DNA of 64,000 nt from Treponemataceae bacterium (GCA_963667725.2 CAXXHO010000003.1:704001-768000); one strand, 5' to 3'; positions 7,228-50,546 are shown, numbered from the stretch's first letter. The notes: generated from the sequence alone by a model not told the origin. Made by a program: numbers and translations.

Positions 7228-8511
7228 CTATCTTCCCATAAGCTTCAGCAATCCGATGCTCGCGTCGGGGATGTAGGTAACAAGCAGCAGGGCGAGGAAC
7301 ATGGCTACTATGAAAGGGAGAGCCTTCTTGACGATTTTGTCGAGAGGAATACTCGTCATGCCCGAAGCCACGAAGAGGTTGGCTGCGACCGGCGGCGTCA
7401 CGAAACCGATGGCGAGATTGATCGTCATCATGATTCCGAAATGGACGGGATCTATGCCATAGGGCCTCAGGGCGAGCAGAAGGATCGGCGAGAAGATGAT
7501 GTTCGCCGAGGTGGTGTCCATGACCATGCCGACAAAGACAAGGAAAACGTTCACGATCAGGAGGACGATGATCTTGTTGCTCGAGATGCCGAACAGGAAG
7601 GCGGTCAGCCCCTGCGGAATCTGGAGGAGGGACAGCACCGCGCCCATGGCCGCGGCGGGGGCGAAGGTCAGCATCATGCCGCCCACGAAGGAGGTGTTGC
7701 CGACGAGCATCTTCCAGAGGTTCTTCCAGGTCAGTTCCTTGTAGATGAAGACGCCGACGATGATGCCGTAGAAAGTAGCTATGACGGCAGCCTCGGTCGG
7801 GGTAAAGATGCCGCCGTAGATGCCGCCCAGGATGATGACGGGCATGAGCAAGGCCCATATGCCTTCCCAGGTAGCCTTGAGGAGAGCCTTCATGCTGAAT
7901 TTTTGGCCGTTGCCAAGATAGCCGGCTTTCTTGGAGAGAACGATGTTGGGGACGATGAGGAAAGCGGCCACGATGAAGGCTGGCACGATGCCGGCGAGGA
8001 AGAGGTCGCCGATTGAGGTGTTGGTGGCGACGCCATAGACGACGAGGGGAATGCTGGGAGGCATGATGACGCCCAAGCCTCCGGCGACAGCCGACAGTCC
8101 AGTCGCGTAGGTTCTGTCGTATCCCGCCTTCTTCATGTAGGGGATCATGATGCCGCCGATGGCGGCCACCGTCGCGGGGCCGGAGCCGGAGATGGCTCCG
8201 AAGAAAAGGCAGGCGACGACAGTGACGGTTCCGAGGCCGCCTACCGTATGCCCGAGCGCCTTGTCCGCCATGTTGACGAGCCTTTTCGACAGGCCGCCCG
8301 TCTCCATGACGGCGCCGGCGAGCATGAAGCAGGGTATCGCCGTCAGCGGCAGGGATTCGAAGCCGGAATACATGGACTGCGCGAGGAAGGTCAGGTTCGT
8401 CGTTCCGAAGCCCATCGCGACGGCCATCATGCCGAGTCCGAGGGAGATTCCAACGGGCACGCCTATACCGAGGAGTACGACTGCCACCATTGCCAATACT
8501 AGTGATGCCAT
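7228..8511 (-). CDS. dctM: TRAP transporter large permease
   Basis: AIPCFMLAG, GAISGSGPATVAAIG, PPSIP, FTPTEA and GFVTPPV motifs. Confidence 0.93.
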   Translation of the reverse strand: MASLVLAMVAVVLLGIGVPVGISLGLGMMAVAMGFGTTNLTFLAQSMYSGFESLPLTAIPCFMLAGAVMETGGLSKRLVNMADKALGHTVGGLGTVTVVACLFFGAISGSGPATVAAIGGIMIPYMKKAGYDRTYATGLSAVAGGLGVIMPPSIPLVVYGVATNTSIGDLFLAGIVPAFIVAAFLIVPNIVLSKKAGYLGNGQKFSMKALLKATWEGIWALLMPVIILGGIYGGIFTPTEAAVIATFYGIIVGVFIYKELTWKNLWKMLVGNTSFVGGMMLTFAPAAAMGAVLSLLQIPQGLTAFLFGISSNKIIVLLIVNVFLVFVGMVMDTTSANIIFSPILLLALRPYGIDPVHFGIMMTINLAIGFVTPPVAANLFVASGMTSIPLDKIVKKALPFIVAMFLALLLVTYIPDASIGLLKLMGR

Positions 8512-8514
8512 AGC

Positions 8515-9030
8515 TTACTCCCCTTTGCCTTTTTCAATGCCGCCGGCCTCAGGCTTGCGGATTTGGAAGTCCTTGACCTTCTGGATGCTGTCCTGCGCGA
8601 GTCTCAAGAGCATCAAGCCGAACATGGCCGGCAGGATGGAATAGTTGATCCACTTCGGAATGCCGATGACAGCCGTCGCCGTTCCGCTTCGAAACAGCCT
8701 GATGACGATGGGCATGATCCCGAACATCACGATGCAGCTGAAAACGGCAAAGAAAAAGTTTCCGACGAGATCGAGGATCAGGCGATTTTTCGGATTGACC
8801 TTGTCGAGCAGGATTTCGAGGCGGAGATGCTGATGTCTTCGGATAGCCGCGCAGGCGCCGAAATAGATCGACCATACGAAGAGGATAAGGGCGAGTTCCT
8901 CCGACCAGGAAAACGCTTGGTTGAAAACATACCTGGAGACGACCTGAGCGAACAGGACGAGGAACATGGCGCCCGACGCCACCGCTCCCAGGTATATTTC
9001 GATTTCATTGAGGAATTTCCTCACAGTCAT
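8515..9030 (-). CDS. dctQ: TRAP transporter small permease
   Basis: QVVSRYVF..AFSWSEEL and H(LRLE) motifs; four TM segments. Confidence 0.9.
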   Translation of the reverse strand: MTVRKFLNEIEIYLGAVASGAMFLVLFAQVVSRYVFNQAFSWSEELALILFVWSIYFGACAAIRRHQHLRLEILLDKVNPKNRLILDLVGNFFFAVFSCIVMFGIMPIVIRLFRSGTATAVIGIPKWINYSILPAMFGLMLLRLAQDSIQKVKDFQIRKPEAGGIEKGKGE

Positions 9031-9113
9031 AAATCCCTTCCTTTTTAAAACTGAGGGCAACCCGCTCGATGGAACCGCGGGTTGCCCATGGCTCTATGCC
9101 ACGATGATCAGTA

Positions 9114-10235
9114 TCAGTAGCCCATCTTCTCGATGGAGTTCTTGATCGAGTTGAAGTAATCGGCGCCGATCCTCTTGGCGGCTTCGGTCCAGGTGTCGGT
9201 GGAAAGCTTCCTGAACTTGGCGAATTCATCCGCGGAGAGTTCGTTCATCGTCATTCTTTCCTTGAGTTTCTCGATCATCTTCGCTTCGGTCTTTACGAGT
9301 TCGGGGCCGGAATAGTCCTGGGCGATTTTCGCGCTTTCGGCAACGGCTTTCTGAATGTCGGCGGGGAGGGATTTCAGCCACTTGTCGTTGGTCACCGTCG
9401 CGCCAGCCGTGTAGAGATGGTTCGTGAAGGTCAGGTATTTCTGAACTTCGGCATAGTTCTGGGCGAAGATGTTGGCGATGGGGTTTTCCTGGCCGTCGAC
9501 AACTTTCTGCTGGAGGCTGGTGAAGAGTTCGGCGTATGCGATGGGCGTAGCGGCGGCGCCGAGCTTGTTCATGGCCATGATATGGAGGGGGTTGTTCTGG
9601 GTGCGGATCTTCAGGCCCTTGATGTCTGAAACCTGGTCGATCGGGCGCTTGCTGTTCGTGATATGGCGCATGCCAATGGCTCCCATGATCATGACGCTGA
9701 GGCCGGTGTCCTTGATGCACTTTTCGTTCATCAGTTTTCCCGGCTCGCCGGCGACGATCTTGTAGCCCGCTTCCAGGTTGGGAACAAGGAACATGACGTC
9801 CAGGGGCATGAAGGCTTTGGTGTATTCAGCGAAGGCGCCGACGTTGTAGGAATAGGACTCGAAATTGCGGGACTGCAGGCCGCCGAGGATCTGGTCCGCC
9901 GAGGTGCCGAGGCTGCCGTTGTAGTAGATCTGGAATTCAACCTTGTCGCCCAAGCGCTTCTTCATCTCGATGAAAAATTGTCTGTCGCCGCGAGCCACGG
10001 GGGAGTCGAGCAGGTTGCCGGTGACTGCTCCATGTCTCCATACGATCTTCTTGGGGTTATTGGACTTGGCGTCGACGGTTTTCCAGATCGCCTCATCAGC
10101 CGCTGAGAGCGGCGTGGCGATGGAGAGGGCGAAAGCGGTGACGTCCAGTTTCTGTGCCGCGACATTGGACACGAGCCCGGTGAGGGCAAAGAAAATCACA
10201 AGCGCGGTGGCGGTGATTCTGGTTCCTGTCTTCAT
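9114..10235 (-). CDS. dctP: TRAP substrate-binding protein
   Basis: Signal peptide; GLKIRTQ (conserved Arg) and ELFTSLQQKVVDGQENP motifs. Confidence 0.92.
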   Translation of the reverse strand: MKTGTRITATALVIFFALTGLVSNVAAQKLDVTAFALSIATPLSAADEAIWKTVDAKSNNPKKIVWRHGAVTGNLLDSPVARGDRQFFIEMKKRLGDKVEFQIYYNGSLGTSADQILGGLQSRNFESYSYNVGAFAEYTKAFMPLDVMFLVPNLEAGYKIVAGEPGKLMNEKCIKDTGLSVMIMGAIGMRHITNSKRPIDQVSDIKGLKIRTQNNPLHIMAMNKLGAAATPIAYAELFTSLQQKVVDGQENPIANIFAQNYAEVQKYLTFTNHLYTAGATVTNDKWLKSLPADIQKAVAESAKIAQDYSGPELVKTEAKMIEKLKERMTMNELSADEFAKFRKLSTDTWTEAAKRIGADYFNSIKNSIEKMGY

Positions 10236-44209: not shown

Positions 44210-44340
44210 GGTAGCCTCCCTTCACTTGTATGATACAACCCTAGAGGAGGCGGAGGCGATTGTCAAGTTTTTCGCCGCGCCGGACTCTTTGAAGCGCCGT
44301 TTCCCGCAGCGGGAGAATCGAAGGCGGCATGGCGGGCTCC

Positions 44341-44369
44341 TTGCACGAGGAGAGCCGTAATAGTAGAGT
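44341..44369 (+). promoter_or_regulatory. Promoter of the radical SAM operon (leaderless)
   Basis: TTGCAC-N17-TAGAGT ending 6 nt before ATG 44376; no SD sequence in between. Confidence 0.6.
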
Positions 44370-44375
44370 CTGGGC

Positions 44376-44996
44376 ATGCTTCCCAAGGATTATCTGAAAT
44401 GGTACGCGCGCTCTCCGCTGGGGATCGGCAGCGGCTTCGCGGGGCTGGCCGCCGCTCTCGCGGGCGTCGCCGGCGGAATTCCGGCAGGCTTCGCGCTCTT
44501 GGCGGGATCGGCCATCGTCATTTCGGCCGGATTGGTCTCTCTTCTTGTCGGGGCTGGACCTAAATCAGCCATCGCCGCCAGGGAAGCGGCGCTCGGTCGC
44601 GACAGGGCGAAGAAGCTGAGCCATGCCGACGCCTCGAGGGAAAAGCTGGCGCGGATCAGGATCGCCGAGGGGCCCGCGGCCGATGCCGTCCGACTCGTCG
44701 CGCTGGCCGCGGGCGAGTATCTGGATGCCTGCAGGCGTGAAGGCAAGGACGATCCACTAGCCGACGCCGCGCTGGACGAGGCTCTCGATATCGTCGACAT
44801 TTTTCAAAAGGAAAAAGACGAAGCCGCCACCGAGAAACGCTTTGGGCTGGAGGACGCGGACCCCTTCGCGGACGCGGAAAGCCGCGTTGCCGCTGCGCTG
44901 CGCGAAAAAGCGGGGCTTCTGCGGGAGCGGCGGATTCAGATAGACGGCGGCTTACCCGCGTCCGGCCGCATGTCGGTCAGGGAGGAGATTGAATGA
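44376..44996 (+). CDS. Hypothetical membrane protein (two N-terminal TMs, helical C-terminus)
   Basis: Hydrophobic N-terminus and charged helical tail; stop overlaps the next ATG (ATGA). Confidence 0.72.
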   Translation: MLPKDYLKWYARSPLGIGSGFAGLAAALAGVAGGIPAGFALLAGSAIVISAGLVSLLVGAGPKSAIAAREAALGRDRAKKLSHADASREKLARIRIAEGPAADAVRLVALAAGEYLDACRREGKDDPLADAALDEALDIVDIFQKEKDEAATEKRFGLEDADPFADAESRVAAALREKAGLLRERRIQIDGGLPASGRMSVREEIE

Positions 44997-46720
44997 AACG
45001 AACGCGTTTCGGGGCAATGCTCGCCATCGCGCTTTTCGCTCTCGTGGGCGGCCTGTCCGCCCTTTCGACATCGCTGGAGTCGGCCGACATCACGGTGGTC
45101 TTGAGGACCGACGGCAAAGCGGATCTGTACTACTGCCTCAAATGGGAAGCCTCGGGCGGCCAGATGCACGGATTCTATTTCCAGGGCGAAGCCTTCGAAC
45201 CTGTCTGGGACATGAACGGCTGCTATGCCGACCTCCCCGGCGGCCTCCGCCAGCCTCTTTCCATAAAACCGATGGGTTCGGGAAAATTCGATGTCATTCT
45301 CTCGGACGGCAAGGGCTTCTCCGGCAGCGCCTACTACTTCCTGCACTATGCGGGGGATTTCGCCCGCGCCGGCCTCATCGGCAGGACAACCAGCCAGGAG
45401 TTCGGGGATCTTCTCTACTTCGACTGGGCTCCCGTCGAGTGGGATGCGGGCATGGAATCGCGGACGGTGAGGCTCGTACTCCCCATGAAGGTGGCTGGCG
45501 AGTCGCTCACCGAAACCGAGCGTTCCGGCGTCCCTCTGAAAACCGAAAAATCGGTGAATGCCGAGAACAAGATAGATTACTACGGCTCGAAGGGCGATGA
45601 CGGCTCATATTACCTGACGCTGAGGTTTTTCCAGGAAAAGCTCGCGGCGCGGCAAACCCAGCGCCTGCGGCTGTATTTCCCCGAAGGCTATCTGCCCATG
45701 ACGGCGGCCTTCGATGAGGCGGCGGGACAGGCAGGGGCCACGGGGCAGCTTGGAGCCATGGGGGAGCCCGGCGCCAATGGGCAGCCCGGCGCCGCGGAAG
45801 GCTCGGGCGGTAACGGAGAAAGCCTGCGCGGCCTCAGGCTGCTGACGAATCCCCTCGTCGCGGTTCCGGCCTTCGCGGCGCTCATCGCGCTGGCGCTGTA
45901 CCTTTACATGCTGAACCTTCGCCGCTACGGAAAGCGCGCCGCCCTCGTGAAGGGAATCGCCTGGGCCGGCGATTCCTGGGTGCCGCCCAAGCTGTTTACC
46001 GGAACCTATCAGGTTCCGGGCAAGATAGCCGAGGATCTGCATCCCGCCGAAGTGGCGCTTCTCTTCGAGTTTCCCCTCGCCAGGGTCGTCGCCCTCATGC
46101 TCGAAGGGCTGCGAAGTCAGGGAATCATCACGATCGCTGAGGAAAATCCCTTGAGGATTTCCATCCTGAGCCGGAATGAGGCGAAGGACGAGATAGAGGA
46201 AAGCTTCCTCGCCTGCTTCGATGCCGAGGGCAGGGTCCTGTCCGGCCTGATGATGGACTTCTTCGAGGCGACGATACGCGGGCTCCAGGAAAAGCTCTGG
46301 GACTGCGACATGGAGGCGACGAAGGCTCATTACCGGGCCCTGCTGGCCGAAGCCGAGACGATGGAGTCGGAGCGAAAAAGCGGCGAAGCGCTCATGGACG
46401 AAGAACGCCGGCTCGCCTGGCGCGCCCGCAACCATTACTGGTACTACTGGCATGGCTACTGCTATGTCCATTCCCATCCCGCGCGCTTCTTGGGGCTGGG
46501 ACTTCCCGAGGCGCTCTCGACGGGCTACAGCGATTTCATGCGATCTTCGGCCTGCTTCTCCGGCTGCTTCACTCCCGGCAAGGAAGGCCAAGCGGGAGCC
46601 TGCTATTCGGCCTGCCACAACGCTTGCCATGATGCCTGCCATTCGGCCTGTCATTCAGCATGCCATTCGGCCTGCCACTCGGCATGCCATTCGGCATGCG
46701 TATCCGGAGGCGGTCATTGA
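44993..46720 (+). CDS. DUF2207-like single-pass membrane protein with C-terminal (C-H/Y-x-A)n repeat; candidate radical SAM target
   Basis: Signal peptide, beta-rich ectodomain (ADITVVLRTDG), Gly-X-Y linker, TM followed by RRYGKR, LHPAEVALL motif, and tail CYSACHNACHDA(CHSA)5CVSGGGH. Confidence 0.8.
   Translation: MKRTRFGAMLAIALFALVGGLSALSTSLESADITVVLRTDGKADLYYCLKWEASGGQMHGFYFQGEAFEPVWDMNGCYADLPGGLRQPLSIKPMGSGKFDVILSDGKGFSGSAYYFLHYAGDFARAGLIGRTTSQEFGDLLYFDWAPVEWDAGMESRTVRLVLPMKVAGESLTETERSGVPLKTEKSVNAENKIDYYGSKGDDGSYYLTLRFFQEKLAARQTQRLRLYFPEGYLPMTAAFDEAAGQAGATGQLGAMGEPGANGQPGAAEGSGGNGESLRGLRLLTNPLVAVPAFAALIALALYLYMLNLRRYGKRAALVKGIAWAGDSWVPPKLFTGTYQVPGKIAEDLHPAEVALLFEFPLARVVALMLEGLRSQGIITIAEENPLRISILSRNEAKDEIEESFLACFDAEGRVLSGLMMDFFEATIRGLQEKLWDCDMEATKAHYRALLAEAETMESERKSGEALMDEERRLAWRARNHYWYYWHGYCYVHSHPARFLGLGLPEALSTGYSDFMRSSACFSGCFTPGKEGQAGACYSACHNACHDACHSACHSACHSACHSACHSACVSGGGH
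46601..46708 (+). repeat. Nine 12-bp tandem units encoding C-(Y/H/V)-x-(A/G)
   Basis: tgctattcggcc tgccacaacgct tgccatgatgcc tgccattcggcc tgtcattcagca tgccattcggcc tgccactcggca tgccattcggca tgcgtatccgga. Confidence 0.95.
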
Positions 46721-48138
46721 TCGGCGGCGATCAGAACGCGCGCGGAGGGAGCCAAGGCGACCGACCAGATCTCTCCTGGGTGCCGGGATTCTGGGAATCC
46801 GTGCGCGATTACATGTTCGTGCGCGAGGAGGACAACGTCGTCATTCTTCCGCCCAACATGGTCTATAAAACCAACGAAACGGGCGTGAAGATCCTCGCGG
46901 CCCTCGATTCGGGCCAGAAAATCGAGAAGCTGCCGGGAATGGACGCGGCGAAGCTGCGCGACATCGCCGGTTTTCTTTCGGACATCAAGGATATCTGCGA
47001 CGGCCGCCAGGTGACGACAGAGCGCGTCGCCTACGGCTTCGACTTCACCCGACTCCCCATCCTGGGGGAGATCGCCGTCACCTACCGCTGCAACAACCGC
47101 TGCCTTTTCTGCTACGCGGGCTGCGGGAGCGGAGGGAGCTGCGGATCCGGGCAGGCCTTTCCTTCCGGCATGGCCTCGGAAGAGATGGATACGCGGGAAA
47201 TTAAGCGCGTTATTGACATTTTCAGGGAAAAGGCCAAAATTCCCTTTTTCTCCTTCACCGGGGGGGAGCCGCTGCTCAGGACCGACCTCGAGGAGTTCAT
47301 CGCCTATGCCGACGGGAAACATCTTCGCGTCAATTTGATCACGAACGGCACGTTGGCGAACCCCGAGCGCGCCCGGTCCCTCTACAAGGCGGGCTTGAGG
47401 ACGGCCCAGGTGAGCCTTGAAAGTCCCGACGCCGCGATCCACGATCGTCTCTGCGGCGCCCCGGGCGCGCACGAGCGCACCTTGGCGGGCATCGAAGCGC
47501 TCGCCGCCGCGGGAATCCGCGTCCAGACCAACTCGACCCTTACCCGGCCCAACAGGGAGAGCCTTCTCTCGATGCCCGCCTACCTGAAGAGCCTCGGCGT
47601 CGAGCGTTTTTCGATGAACCTCTACATCCCGGCTGCCAATTCCGAGCGGGCGCCCGAGCTCTTCGTGGCCTATTCGGATACCGGCGCCTTTGTCGACGAA
47701 ATCCGCCGGCAAGCCTTCAGGGAAGGGCTCACTTTCTTCTGGTATTCACCGACGCCGCTCTGCATCTACAATCCCGTCGCCAGGGGTTTGGGCAACAAGA
47801 GCTGCGCCGCCGCCGACGGTCTCCTGAGCGTGAATCCCGCCGGCGATATCCTGCCCTGTTCCTCCTATCCCGAATCGCTCGGCAACATTCTGAAGAAAGA
47901 TTTTTCGGATATCTGGTTCTCGGAACGCGCCGCCCACTTCAAGAATAAACGCTACGCTCCCGAATCCTGCGAAAGCTGCGGTTCATTCACCGCCTGCCAG
48001 GCCGCCTGCCCTCTTTATTGGGACTACGCTGGCTACGGCGAGCTCGAGAACGCAAGGAAAACGATGGAAACAAGAGCAAGCGGCGATAATCGCGCGATGT
48101 CGCGGCCCGCGGTTTCCGCGGCCGACGAAAAGAGGTAA
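46717..48138 (+). CDS. Radical SAM/SPASM enzyme with N-terminal PqqD/RRE-like region
   Basis: CNNRCLFC, TGGEP, TNG and QVSLE motifs; SPASM C...G.ILPC...LGN...CESC...CQAACP. TTG start at 46717 overlaps the upstream TGA and has a GGAGG RBS. Confidence 0.92.
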   Translation: MIGGDQNARGGSQGDRPDLSWVPGFWESVRDYMFVREEDNVVILPPNMVYKTNETGVKILAALDSGQKIEKLPGMDAAKLRDIAGFLSDIKDICDGRQVTTERVAYGFDFTRLPILGEIAVTYRCNNRCLFCYAGCGSGGSCGSGQAFPSGMASEEMDTREIKRVIDIFREKAKIPFFSFTGGEPLLRTDLEEFIAYADGKHLRVNLITNGTLANPERARSLYKAGLRTAQVSLESPDAAIHDRLCGAPGAHERTLAGIEALAAAGIRVQTNSTLTRPNRESLLSMPAYLKSLGVERFSMNLYIPAANSERAPELFVAYSDTGAFVDEIRRQAFREGLTFFWYSPTPLCIYNPVARGLGNKSCAAADGLLSVNPAGDILPCSSYPESLGNILKKDFSDIWFSERAAHFKNKRYAPESCESCGSFTACQAACPLYWDYAGYGELENARKTMETRASGDNRAMSRPAVSAADEKR

Positions 48139-48142
48139 AGCG

Positions 48143-49015
48143 ATGGACTACGAATTTTCTTCCATGAAACTGAGTCTTTCCGCAAGGCTGGCCCTCGCGG
48201 CCGGGCTTTTTTCCGTTGGAGCCCTCCTCCAGGTCCTCTTCGGCTGGGGCCTCCTGCCCGGCTTGATCGCCATTGTCCTCGGCTACATTCCCCTGCGCCT
48301 CAAGCCGATAACGAACAAGCCGGCCGACCAGGGGCTCGAGGAATGGCGTCCCGTCTCGATGGCCGAGATCGACAAGCTGGCTGATACCCTGCGCGAATCG
48401 AAGGCGATCTTCGGCAAGTCCATCGGCGGCAGCGTTCTCATGGTCATACTGGCAAGCGCCGTGGCGATCGCCGCTGGTGTTTCGCTCGCCTTCAGCCCCG
48501 ATCTGTCGCTGGTTCTGGCCGACGGACTGCTTTTCGCCGTACCCGCCATGTTTTTCGGAAGGGTGAAGGCCTTCGTGCCCCATGTCCTTTCTCTGAAAAT
48601 GCCCTGCTTCCAGGCGCTCTTTGCCGAGCGGATCCCCGAGCACGTCGTCGTCACGCCCTATCTTCGCTTCGACAAGGACAAGAATGGGGGCGACGTGCCC
48701 GAGGATATCCGCCTCATGATCGAGCCCAAGCGCAAACCCGACGATTTCGTGGGCGTTCAGGTCCAGGCGGCCATCAACAAGGGGCCGAGCGCCGAGGTGC
48801 CTTATCTCTACGCCGTTATTCTCACGAAAGGGAAGGGCGCCAGCTACCGCAGGTTCGAGGATCTGCGCGCGAGCGGCTACGAAAAAGAAGCCGGCGGCGA
48901 CGAAGCCTACGGCAGCATCGTCGTGAGGCAGGAGACTTCGGGGACGGGCTACGCCACGAAACCTTCCGACTGCGTGAGGCTGTTCAACCTGATCTGCGGA
49001 ATCCTGAAGGCTTAA
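48143..49015 (+). CDS. Hypothetical membrane protein (about 4 TMs plus soluble C-terminal domain)
   Basis: Two hydrophobic hairpins; starts 4 nt after the rSAM stop, so it is likely the last gene of the operon. Confidence 0.72.
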   Translation: MDYEFSSMKLSLSARLALAAGLFSVGALLQVLFGWGLLPGLIAIVLGYIPLRLKPITNKPADQGLEEWRPVSMAEIDKLADTLRESKAIFGKSIGGSVLMVILASAVAIAAGVSLAFSPDLSLVLADGLLFAVPAMFFGRVKAFVPHVLSLKMPCFQALFAERIPEHVVVTPYLRFDKDKNGGDVPEDIRLMIEPKRKPDDFVGVQVQAAINKGPSAEVPYLYAVILTKGKGASYRRFEDLRASGYEKEAGGDEAYGSIVVRQETSGTGYATKPSDCVRLFNLICGILKA

Positions 49016-49047: not shown

Positions 49048-50457
49048 TTACTTGTTCCCCGTAGCGTCGCCGCCGGCCATCCGGAGCAGCCAGGAGGCTT
49101 GCGGGACCAGCCCGCCCAGCCTTTCTTTTCTGATCTGCAGGAACCAGGGCTTGCCGTGCCGGATTTTTCCTCCGGTACAGCCTTCCGCGTCGAAAAATCT
49201 ATAATCCTCCGCTTCGAGCCTGATGGCCTTCCCCTCGGGGGGGATGACCTCGATGACTTCGCCGGCCGGGATGCTGTTCTTCAGTTCGGCATAAACAGGA
49301 CTTGTCCAGGCTTCGTCCTCAAATCGGGAATTCAGCGAAGTCCTCTCCGCGTCGGCGTCGAGGCTCTGGGCGGCTCCATCCTCGATGGCCGGCATATTCT
49401 CGAGGCTTCCCGCGAAAAGGTGAGTCTGCCGGTAGGACGTGACGGCAGACAGGTCCATCCCCTCGCGGCCGTAGAAAAAGCCGGTGTCGTACTCCCTGTG
49501 GCTGACGGCGAAGAGATCCTCGCGGAAAAGATTCTCTTCCCCCGGATGATCGAGGGCGTATCGGTAGGCGCGGGTGATAAGGGCGACATAGTAGATGCTT
49601 TTCATCCTGCCTTCCAGCTTGAGGCTGTCGACGCCAGCCTCCTTCAGGTCCTGAAGGTGGTCGATCATGCACAGGTCGCGGGAGGACATGAGGAGGGTGT
49701 AGCCGCCGTGGCTCGTCTCGCCCGTCTCGACGGGCAGCAGCTGGCCGTGGCGTTTTTCCTCTTCGATATAGACTTTATAGTGCCAGCGGCAGGAATGCGT
49801 GCAGTCGCCCTTGTTGGCCGATCTTCCCGCCAGCCAAGAGGAGATGAAACATCTGCCCGAATAGGCCATGCACATGGCGCCGTGCACGAAGGCTTCCACC
49901 TCCAGCCCCGGCACATGGTCCTTGATGGCCTTGATGACGTCGAGGGAAAGTTCGCGCGCCGGAACGATGCGGCTGAAGCCCATGTCCCGATAGAGCTTCG
50001 CCGCCCGCCAGTTGGTGCAGTTCGCCTGCGTGCTGAGGTGGAATTCCCTGTCGGGAAAGGCTTTTCTCAGCATTTCGTAGGCGCCGAGGTCGCTCACGAG
50101 AAATCCGTCGAAGGGGTACTCCGCGATTCTCGGCAGCGCTTTTTCGAGGGCGTCCAGGTCGTCGTTGTGGAAGAAAATGTTGGCGGCGCAGTAGAGTTTC
50201 TTGCCTGGCGACGGCCGCGCCGGCGCTGGGCCCGGCCGCCCCGGCGGGACGCCGGGCCGCTCCGGCAGCCCGCCGGGCCGACTAAAAGTCTCCTTAATCG
50301 CGCGGATTCTGTCCGGAGCCATGCCATCCTCATCGTCGATGTTTTCGGCCTGGGCGCGGAGGCTGAAGAAGGGGAGACCGATGTAGGCGGCGTCAGCGCC
50401 ATACCGGTAGGCGTAGATCAGTTTTTCGATGCTGCCAGCGGGGGAAAGAAGTTCCAT
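49048..50457 (-). CDS. Peptidase U32 family protein (TrhP/RlhA-like Fe-S protein)
   Basis: ELLSPAG, GADA.Y.G, HLSTQAN, HGAMCMAYSGRC, NKGDCTHSCR and K.EGRMK motifs. Confidence 0.9.
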   Translation of the reverse strand: MELLSPAGSIEKLIYAYRYGADAAYIGLPFFSLRAQAENIDDEDGMAPDRIRAIKETFSRPGGLPERPGVPPGRPGPAPARPSPGKKLYCAANIFFHNDDLDALEKALPRIAEYPFDGFLVSDLGAYEMLRKAFPDREFHLSTQANCTNWRAAKLYRDMGFSRIVPARELSLDVIKAIKDHVPGLEVEAFVHGAMCMAYSGRCFISSWLAGRSANKGDCTHSCRWHYKVYIEEEKRHGQLLPVETGETSHGGYTLLMSSRDLCMIDHLQDLKEAGVDSLKLEGRMKSIYYVALITRAYRYALDHPGEENLFREDLFAVSHREYDTGFFYGREGMDLSAVTSYRQTHLFAGSLENMPAIEDGAAQSLDADAERTSLNSRFEDEAWTSPVYAELKNSIPAGEVIEVIPPEGKAIRLEAEDYRFFDAEGCTGGKIRHGKPWFLQIRKERLGGLVPQASWLLRMAGGDATGNK

Positions 50458-50546
50458 GCATGGATTATCCCCGCGGCGCTTCTTTCTGTCCATCACCGCG
50501 TGATAGATTGGAGAGACACGGAAACGCGAGGGTAGGGAGGTCTGGA

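Follow-up and report, generated by a model that had tools for sequence, protein, structure and literature searches.

The window analyzed here, a 64-kb stretch of Treponemataceae bacterium DNA to which all coordinates below refer, contains between positions 44376 and 49015 four coupled + strand genes that we named g1 to g4 in their order. The product of g2 is a 575-aa membrane protein that ends in a tandem Cys-His-x-Ala repeat, and that of g3 is a radical S-adenosylmethionine (SAM)/SPASM enzyme. We consider it likely that g3 covalently modifies the cytoplasmic tail of g2 in place, the tail being a substrate built into the membrane protein itself. An earlier note on this DNA had put the tail forward as a putative radical SAM substrate, and had named, among the observations that would speak against this, three that can be looked for in sequences: enzyme homologues that usually lack a Cys-tail neighbor, an enzyme of a cofactor-biosynthesis group such as NirJ, AhbC or AhbD, and an extracytoplasmic tail. 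The comparison of loci supports the proposal and none of the three was encountered.

Several lines of evidence support this proposed enzyme-substrate relationship. The genes for tail and enzyme are adjacent and co-occur from genome to genome, the tail pattern has a single site in its own genome, the tail peptide is under selection, and the tail is retained on carrier proteins that differ. In addition, the enzyme has a predicted fold of the maturase type, the start of its gene is coupled to the end of g2 through a TTGA overlap, and the topology places enzyme and tail in one compartment. There are also precedents, namely QhpD/QhpC, anSME, NxxcB and PapB in the available portion of PMC10114670, and HxsA in that of PMC13128918.

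The repeat tail and its junction with the enzyme gene

Open reading frame (ORF) calling and reading of the junctions showed that 44376-49015 is filled by four coupled ORFs:

44376-44996, + strand: g1, ORF of 206 aa
44993-46720, + strand: g2, ORF for the 575-aa type-I membrane protein that bears the tail
46717-48138 (alternative start 46660), + strand: g3, radical SAM/SPASM enzyme, 473 aa from TTG 46717 (ORF, Pfam)
48143-49015, + strand: g4, ORF of 290 aa with four transmembrane (TM) segments
46706-46710, + strand: GGAGG, recognized in the sequence as the ribosome-binding site of g3, 6 nt upstream of TTG 46717

The end of g1 and the start of g2 overlap in ATGA, the g2 stop codon TGA (46718-46720) overlaps the TTG of g3 at 46717 in TTGA, and a gap of 4 nt separates g3 from g4. 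These junctions match the coupled four-gene operon that the earlier note had described. The GGAGG of g3 sits within the Ser-Gly-Gly codons that close the g2 tail.

The longest ORF of g3 opens at ATG 46660, inside the tail-coding DNA, and over its first 19 codons it reads the tail repeat out of frame. This shadow-frame N terminus also occurs in several database homologues of g3, as an annotated extension resembling MPFGLPLG. Because this extension is an other-frame reading of the repeat and conservation starts near residue 17, TTG 46717 is the likelier start. A second frame of the repeat has no stops and gives rise to a 138-aa shadow ORF (46452-46868, + strand); two database proteins, P0009 and P0015, represent the tail in a shifted frame and are rich in Pro, Ala and Thr.

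Two features make up the C terminus of g2:

46553-46570, + strand: pre-tail motif C521-F-S-G-C525-F, conserved in most lineages, not all
46598-46717, + strand: tail, A536-H575, CYSA-CHNA-CHDA-(CHSA)5-CVSGGGH, in 12-nt units that differ at synonymous sites

The order is thus C521-FSG-C525-F, a short linker and A536-CYSA-CHNA-CHDA-(CHSA)5-CVSGGGH575, which is exactly the ending that had been given for the 575-aa protein. The two pre-tail cysteines are invariant or nearly so in two homologue alignments. At the DNA level, Tandem Repeats Finder described the tail by a period of 12, 8.5 copies and 75% matches. We searched for the tail with a degenerate DNA pattern of three CHxA units and used the reversed pattern as a control. 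The pattern had one site, in g2, in the 4.2-Mb genome to which the window belongs, while the reversed pattern had no match in this genome or in the 301 genomes searched.

The tail is conserved far beyond the rest of the protein. In an alignment of 33 g2 sequences, mean pairwise identity reached 0.88 for the tail, whereas the ecto-domain had 0.38, the cytoplasmic domain 0.40 and the linkers 0.12-0.23. We also compared 42 sequences (861 pairs) over the final 24 codons of the tail and counted 12085 synonymous and 557 non-synonymous differences. Identity over these codons was 0.973 at the amino-acid level, 0.735 at the nucleotide level and 0.408 at third positions. Since the differences are nearly all synonymous, selection acts on the tail peptide and not on the DNA repeat. 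Tail length was unchanged in contigs of three runs from three studies, one of which may be the source of the window. Four base changes in the tail were listed from these contigs; three were synonymous and one alters Ala536, ahead of the first unit.

The only family model that touched the tail was TIGR04117, which aligned with the last 73 residues at 14.8 bits (E = 0.023), far below its cut-off of 50. A 102-aa database fragment with the same tail (P0139) carries the precomputed Pfam assignment PF27846.1. Three short proteins (40-128 aa) with the tail were found and all were fragments: two are encoded on contigs 578 and 728 nt long and the third is a frameshifted piece. The small precursor peptide, protease and exporter that the earlier note had not found in the operon were likewise absent from the ORFs that we called, no protease or exporter was conserved beside the operon, and the searches found no stand-alone small form of the tail.

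Enzyme and tail across bacteria

A scan with the enzyme alignment, using one genome per species, gave 590 candidate stretches, among which 401 relatives were confirmed and 79 loci were kept. In 73 of the 79 loci a tail ORF lies upstream on the same strand and ends at the enzyme start. Two further loci (L040 and L076) have less than 100 nt upstream, and there the tail was seen by tblastn at the contig edge, which brings the count to 75 of 79. In three others (L045, L075 and L104) there is no DNA upstream of the enzyme gene. One locus, L092, is truly negative; relatives of the enzyme have a Cys-tail neighbor almost without exception.

The labels of these loci, which are those given in the submitters' records, cover more than 10 phylum-level groups. 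They include Spirochaetota, Myxococcota, Armatimonadota, Bacteroidales, Kiritimatiellae and Lentisphaerae, and further Aminicenantes, Cloacimonetes, UBP16, Bacteriovoracaceae, Gammaproteobacteria and a Clostridium. L092 bears the record label Candidatus Moduliflexus; its enzyme is a relative at 45% identity, it has neither a tail gene nor g4 within 5 kb, and it adjoins response-regulator-like ORFs.

In a phylum sample of 301 genomes the enzyme, counted at E up to 1e-40, was present in 14. Enzyme and tail pattern were distributed as follows:

Both enzyme and tail pattern: 13 genomes, with the pattern adjoining the enzyme each time
Enzyme only: 1 genome (G051), with the enzyme at a contig end
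Pattern only: 1 genome (G291), where three units match in an unrelated frame and g2, g3 and g4 are absent
Neither enzyme nor pattern: 286 genomes

Because related genomes are not independent, we give this co-occurrence as counts without a statistical test. Leaving aside the window's own genome, 13 loci from this sample could be inspected over up to ~7 kb per side (five of them are contigs that are also among the 79). Eleven have an upstream ORF that ends in (CHSA)n-CVS, and the remaining two are at contig ends, one of which (G287) matches the tail pattern within the first 39 bases.

A second type of locus shows that the carrier protein can change while the tail persists. In L022 to L027, L098, L105, L107 and L108, the same repeat stands at the end of carriers of 646-1052 aa that have no Pfam family. 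These tails have Val-His interruptions and end in CVSSF, CVSNF or CVSDF. The place of g4 is taken by a soluble ORF of 390-446 aa and of no known family in seven of them (L024, L026, L027, L098, L105, L107 and L108), and in L022 and L023 no same-strand ORF was found downstream of the enzyme. A different arrangement was seen in L057 (3250-10186), which has two g2-like genes. The tailed one is upstream of the enzyme, the second is at 7547-9181, and a g4-like gene follows the second at 9218-10186.

The enzyme, the membrane protein and their neighbors

Three regions of g3 stand out:

46780-46998, + strand: RRE-like N-terminal domain, residues ~22-94, three strands then helices in the predicted fold
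47089-47112, + strand: radical SAM cluster motif C125-x3-C129-x2-C132, invariant in 33 sequences
47761-48009, + strand: SPASM region with seven Cys (349, 363, 381, 418, 421, 427, 431), invariant or at least 90% conserved

The assignment to the radical SAM/SPASM enzymes, made in the earlier note, was confirmed by Pfam. Radical_SAM (PF04055) matched g3 at 95.3 bits (5.9e-27; cut-off 29.5) and SPASM (PF13186) at 41.8 bits (1.3e-10; cut-off 21.5), so that both cut-offs were exceeded. More than 120 homologues of g3 have at least 57% identity to it.

The structure model of g3 had a predicted local distance difference test score (pLDDT) of 80.9 and a predicted template modeling score of 0.83. In its N-terminal block (pLDDT 71-89), DSSP assigned strands at 34-36, 41-44 and 48-51 and helices at 54-64 and 77-94. 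This three-stranded sheet with helices lies within the full-length alignment with SuiB and corresponds to an RRE fold, the domain being judged inside the whole-enzyme model. The PqqD/RRE domain claimed in the earlier note therefore stands as a predicted fold; by sequence, where the match is weak and below the cut-offs, it does not, and our RRE call rests on the fold for this reason.

A Foldseek search with the model returned SuiB first (E = 1.4e-16, 442 columns), followed by SkfB, CteB, PqqE, BlsE, MoaA and anSME. VIA-align gave Z = 26.5 for SuiB (model residues 22-447, chain residues 2-439), 26.1 for SkfB and 25.3 for anSME, the last over residues 113-443, which are the core and SPASM region only. 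A profile search of the PDB aligned CteB over g3 positions 43-422. Identity to maturases of the SuiB, SkfB and CteB type was 15-22%.

No NCBIfam family claimed the enzyme: there were 69 sub-threshold matches and no family cut-off was reached. The models for AhbD, AhbC and NirJ (TIGR04545, TIGR04546, TIGR04051/54/55) gave 139.7, 97.7, 88.9, 80.3 and 115 bits against cut-offs of 500-650. All of these scores are far under the cut-offs, and g3 is thus not placed in the cofactor group that the earlier note had named as the contrary finding. TIGR04340 scored 75-78.5 bits on g3 (cut-off 400). In a whole-genome search at E up to 10, TIGR04115 (cut-off 350 bits) found only another gene, at 11.9 bits, and not g3. 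PADLOC 2.0.0, which predates HXS, matched its viperin models to the generic radical SAM core of g3 (7.6e-17) and had no match for g1, g2 or g4.

We co-folded g3 with the last 90 residues of g2. The score was 0.00 and the mark 0.32, and this run, made without controls, speaks neither for nor against binding. Right after CxxxCxxC, at 47116-47181 (residues ~134-155), g3 has a Gly/Ser/Cys-rich insert that varies from 0 to ~50 residues among homologues and is modeled at pLDDT <50. The same genome has a second radical SAM/SPASM gene outside the window (G000:C3:344868-345893, - strand; locus L115). It scores 337 bits with the ACGX-system model TIGR04340 (cut-off 400), and no Cys-repeat peptide was seen within 1.5 kb on either side.

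Ahead of its tail, g2 consists of the following parts:

45065-45697, + strand: ecto-domain, residues ~25-235, an all-beta sandwich distantly like the DUF2207 N-terminal domain (pLDDT >90)
45854-45910, + strand: TM helix, residues 288-306, hydropathy 2.27, followed by RRYGKR (modeled helix 287-320)
45950-46387, + strand: cytoplasmic domain, residues ~320-465, a winged-helix-like part and a helical bundle with an invariant WDCDxEAT motif

Hydropathy analysis placed an N-terminal signal or anchor at residues 6-24 and counted five Lys or Arg after the TM helix at 288-306, as compared to two before it. By the positive-inside rule, residues 307-575 are therefore cytoplasmic. A third segment, 352-370, was above the hydropathy threshold. 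We did not read it as a TM segment because it contains Glu and Arg residues and falls in the modeled helices of the cytoplasmic domain. Since g3 has no hydrophobic segment, the topology agrees with the earlier claim that the tail is in the cytoplasm, within reach of the enzyme.

The structure model of g2 (pLDDT 79.2) comprises the beta ecto-domain (25-230), the TM helix, a winged-helix-like unit with a helical bundle at 351-500 (~90) and the tail. In the cytoplasmic domain W436, D439 and A442 are invariant in the alignment. Foldseek matched the ERAP1 N-domain and chain E of solved OST complexes (E ~1e-6). We draw no function from this search, as the likeness is that of a generic beta-sandwich only. 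Pfam and NCBIfam contained no family for g1, g2 or g4, and g2 of the window did not match PF09972, the N-terminal domain of DUF2207, even at E up to 10. PF09972 does match six of the 33 aligned relatives (best 3.5e-7), so the description "DUF2207-like" in the earlier note holds for those relatives and fails, by Pfam, for the copy in the window. In a language-model search (Atlas), the clusters nearest to the cytoplasmic part of g2 were DUF2207 and DUF2207_C (0.89-0.93). A word-based search found 16 homologues of g2, two of them frameshifted and two named DUF2207 by NCBI. The complete ones all share the tail.

The other two genes of the operon also encode membrane proteins. By hydropathy, g1 has two N-terminal TM segments and an acidic helical cytoplasmic part, and g4 has four TM segments, arranged as two hairpins, and a C-terminal cytoplasmic domain of ~150 aa. 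The positive-inside rule places the soluble parts of both in the cytoplasm. PADLOC, like Pfam and NCBIfam, offered no family for either, and the Atlas clusters nearest to g4 were hypothetical proteins only, one of them rich in Thorarchaeota labels.

With a profile built from ORFs of the same 79 loci, g4 was matched in 71 of the 79, and only in L057 was the match not immediately downstream of the enzyme. The eight loci without a match comprise L047, L092, four loci of the second type and two in which the contig ends. For g1, 43 of 79 loci, mostly spirochaete-labeled, gave a profile match immediately upstream of g2, and the flanking genes of the window recur in only one to three. From these counts we take g2-g3-g4 to be the core of the cassette and g1 a lineage-specific addition. 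Accordingly, g1 is a spirochaete-specific, lineage-restricted accessory gene, and g4 is a conserved third partner, perhaps a membrane scaffold. We also considered g1 as a counterpart of LemA, prompted by the pairing of ordinary DUF2207 proteins with LemA that is described in the available portion of PMC12631010. A genome-wide search at E up to 10 found no LemA match, and this candidate was dropped.

The earlier note had placed all four genes behind one promoter, and this was not borne out. A sigma-70 scan had no site in 44210-44375 and only two intragenic matches, as compared to 0.9 expected by chance. In the promoter and terminator scan, neither the upstream intergenic region nor the DNA after g4 gave anything above chance. 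Within 44341-44378, a weak TTGCAC-17-TAGAGT pair, below the scan thresholds, ends 8 nt before the ATG of g1, and a transcript from it would be nearly leaderless. No Shine-Dalgarno-like sequence precedes that ATG. Contigs of run X12, which we guess to be cDNA and which may hold DNA, cover parts of g2, g3 and g4. A convergent gene of 482 aa (49048-50496, - strand), which by its signature looks like a U32-family peptidase, ends 32 nt past g4. It stands beside the cassette in only two of the 79 loci and is therefore not part of it.

Proposed function, alternatives and known systems

In the mechanism that we propose, g2 would be inserted in the membrane with its beta-sandwich outside and its winged-helix/helical domain and (Cys-His-x-Ala)n tail inside. 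Translation of g3 would be coupled to the end of g2. The enzyme would then bind g2 in its C-terminal region and, by 5'-deoxyadenosyl radical chemistry, alter each repeat unit covalently once. The modified tail would remain attached to g2 as a rigid ladder of cross-linked Cys/His. Our best guess for the bond, by analogy with PapB, NxxcB and QhpD, is one in-line thioether per unit, in which the Cys sulfur is joined to a carbon of a neighboring residue. A Cys-His link, or a cyclophane on His, might be formed instead.

It could be speculated that the tail is turned into a protein-derived cofactor, that is, a cross-linked Cys-His ladder of fixed length with S-to-C or S-to-imidazole links at the inner face of the membrane. 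We regard this extension as unlikely, though worth stating. Such a ladder may act as a redox or metal relay of an envelope protein and would be a new kind of built-in prosthetic group. In a variant of this idea, the cassette may be an envelope-associated defence or stress module like HXS, with the protein matured by the radical SAM enzyme as its working part.

A number of observations weigh against in-place modification of the tail by g3. As mentioned above, the N-terminal domain of the enzyme is below the cut-offs by sequence (PqqD PF05402, 15.4 bits versus 23.4, E = 0.023-0.04; TIGR03859, 13.8 bits versus 46). The top NCBIfam score belongs to a cofactor enzyme, AhbD (139.7 bits versus a cut-off of 500), although over the core only (residues 121-310). 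One enzyme relative, L092, has no tail gene within 5 kb and is the single true negative of the 79 loci. No universal leader-like motif was seen upstream of the repeat, as CFxGCF is absent in several lineages (for example L090, L093 and L096). Position 3 of the unit varies, and in place of His the first unit has Tyr and the last has Val, so that the sequence does not reveal which residue is the acceptor. Finally, the tail is modeled at pLDDT <50, and with 9-11 Cys and 7-8 His it would bind metals unmodified.

The last of these points leads to the main rival. The tail could be a metal or Fe-S module of a membrane sensor or transporter accessory that is never modified, while the enzyme uses it as a donor of a cluster, sulfur or electrons or as a membrane dock, or acts on another substrate. 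Nine Cys at a strict i+4 spacing, mostly followed by His, are a strong metal-binding sequence, and the model draws the tail as one helix that lines up the Cys, though at the low pLDDT just given. Moreover, SPASM enzymes have two auxiliary clusters, and g3 has seven conserved Cys in place of eight, so that one ligand may be external. Against this, the enzyme has an N-terminal domain of the substrate-recognition type and in fold it comes closest to maturases of peptides and proteins. The length and composition of metal-binding tails are usually subject to drift, whereas here the number of units and the sequence are kept across phyla with an amino-acid identity of 0.97. There is also no conserved gene for a metal transporter or chaperone adjacent to the cassette, the flanking genes being as rarely conserved as described above. 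Metal binding thus accounts for the composition of the tail; it does not explain why the number of units is fixed, why the tail is nearly invariant and why the enzyme has a domain of the recognition type, and we consider it rather improbable as the whole explanation.

Another possibility is that g2 is a membrane-tethered precursor of a peptide made on the ribosome and modified after translation (RiPP). The tail would be modified, cut off and released or exported as a Cys/His-rich peptide, and the body of g2 would be an oversized leader. Radical SAM-SPASM enzymes with an RRE do typically act on precursors that later lose their leader, and g4, as an uncharacterized membrane protein, could help in release. 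This reading is quite improbable, as no protease or ABC-type exporter is encoded in the operon or conserved beside it, the ecto- and cytoplasmic domains of g2 are conserved folds that do not resemble a disposable leader, the 40-128-aa proteins with the tail are fragments only, and the tail faces the cytoplasm. A RiPP precursor is defined as a short leader-core peptide with proteolytic release, and g2 departs from this definition in being a folded carrier of 575 aa, with no conserved protease or exporter and no small form. That g3 is an AhbD/NirJ-like enzyme of cofactor biosynthesis and lies beside g2 by accident is scarcely credible: its best NCBIfam scores, AhbD at 139.7 and NirJ2 at 115 bits, are far below cut-offs of 500 and the AhbD match covers the core alone, its N-terminal domain aligns with that of SuiB, adjacency to and co-occurrence with the tail hold across phyla, and the operon has no other heme or siroheme gene.

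Nearly all work on radical SAM/SPASM maturases has concerned small secreted peptides. In this cassette an enzyme of that type belongs to a three-gene core with a large membrane protein, to whose cytoplasmic tail it is tied, and the core is found under more than 10 phylum-level labels. If the tail is modified in place, RiPP-type chemistry would reach membrane proteins. The tail would then be a defined, short and highly repetitive substrate for possibly new Cys/His chemistry, and it would offer a first handle on the large DUF2207-like class of proteins of unknown function.

The earlier note had known of no characterized system with this layout. For the enzyme-target pair this agrees with the literature searched, which held no paper on the pair and no DUF2207 paper with a radical SAM partner. 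Radical SAM enzymes are, however, known to mature whole proteins (QhpD/QhpC, anSME and, since 2026, HxsA). The g2 protein is most like DUF2207 proteins in its plan of signal peptide, beta ecto-domain, TM helix and a cytoplasmic part with a low-complexity C-terminal end. It differs from the ordinary members, which are paired with LemA according to the available portion of PMC12631010, in that this genome has no LemA match and the copy in the window is unrecognized by Pfam.

In domain order and fold, g3 is like the maturases SuiB, CteB and SkfB. The substrates of these enzymes and of PapB and NxxcB are small leader-core peptides that are released, whereas here the substrate would be the tail of a membrane protein. 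PapB and NxxcB act on short motifs that recur several times and form one small thioether ring at each of them. With the NCBIfam PapB model g3 scores 59.8 bits (cut-off 340), and StsB and WgkB are likewise far below their cut-offs. The CXXX- and ACGX-repeat systems (TIGR04117 with TIGR04115; TIGR04340) share with the cassette a tandem Cys at every fourth residue beside a dedicated radical SAM/SPASM enzyme. These models describe small proteins, the TIGR04117 profile having 98 positions, in contrast to the 575-aa carrier seen here. We know of no experiment on targets with CXXX or ACGX repeats, and the names of the TIGR04117, TIGR04115 and TIGR04340 systems were absent from the literature searched.

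Among enzymes that act on full-size proteins, anSME is likewise a radical SAM-SPASM enzyme, modifying Cys or Ser. It has no counterpart of the N-terminal domain and modifies one motif, once in each sulfatase, and g3 scores 56.9 bits with its NCBIfam model (cut-off 349). QhpC, the target of QhpD, is a soluble subunit of small size that has Cys-to-Asp/Glu links and lacks a tandem repeat. The available portion of PMC10114670 presents the action of radical SAM-SPASM enzymes on whole proteins as established for anSME and QhpD/QhpC, and in-line thioethers as established for NxxcB and PapB. It describes QhpD as a radical SAM-SPASM enzyme that puts several intra-protein Cys thioethers in QhpC, which stays a working subunit. 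As described there, the target protein is kept and not released as a peptide, as we propose for g2; the proposed target here is a repeat tail, carried by a membrane protein of 575 aa, and the two enzymes are set side by side by description only.

The HXS system, as described in the available portion of a 2026 paper (PMC13128918), offers another comparison. HxsB and HxsC mature HxsA, a protein of ~214 residues (mass-spectrometric coverage to residue 214) with five His-x-Ser repeats, to a periplasmic antiphage effector. By score g3 is outside this group, with 54.3 bits to HxsC (TIGR03977, cut-off 267.9) and 70.2 to HxsC4 (cut-off 500). HXS has two radical SAM enzymes and HxsD, a His-x-Ser repeat of period 3 without Cys, and an HxsA that is cleaved and exported to the periplasm. 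The cassette described here has one enzyme, a Cys-His-x-Ala repeat of period 4 and a cytoplasmic tail on a membrane protein. What the two have in common is a whole protein with short tandem His-containing repeats as the target, proven or proposed, of radical SAM maturation, and for HxsA that source makes the modified protein itself the working part.

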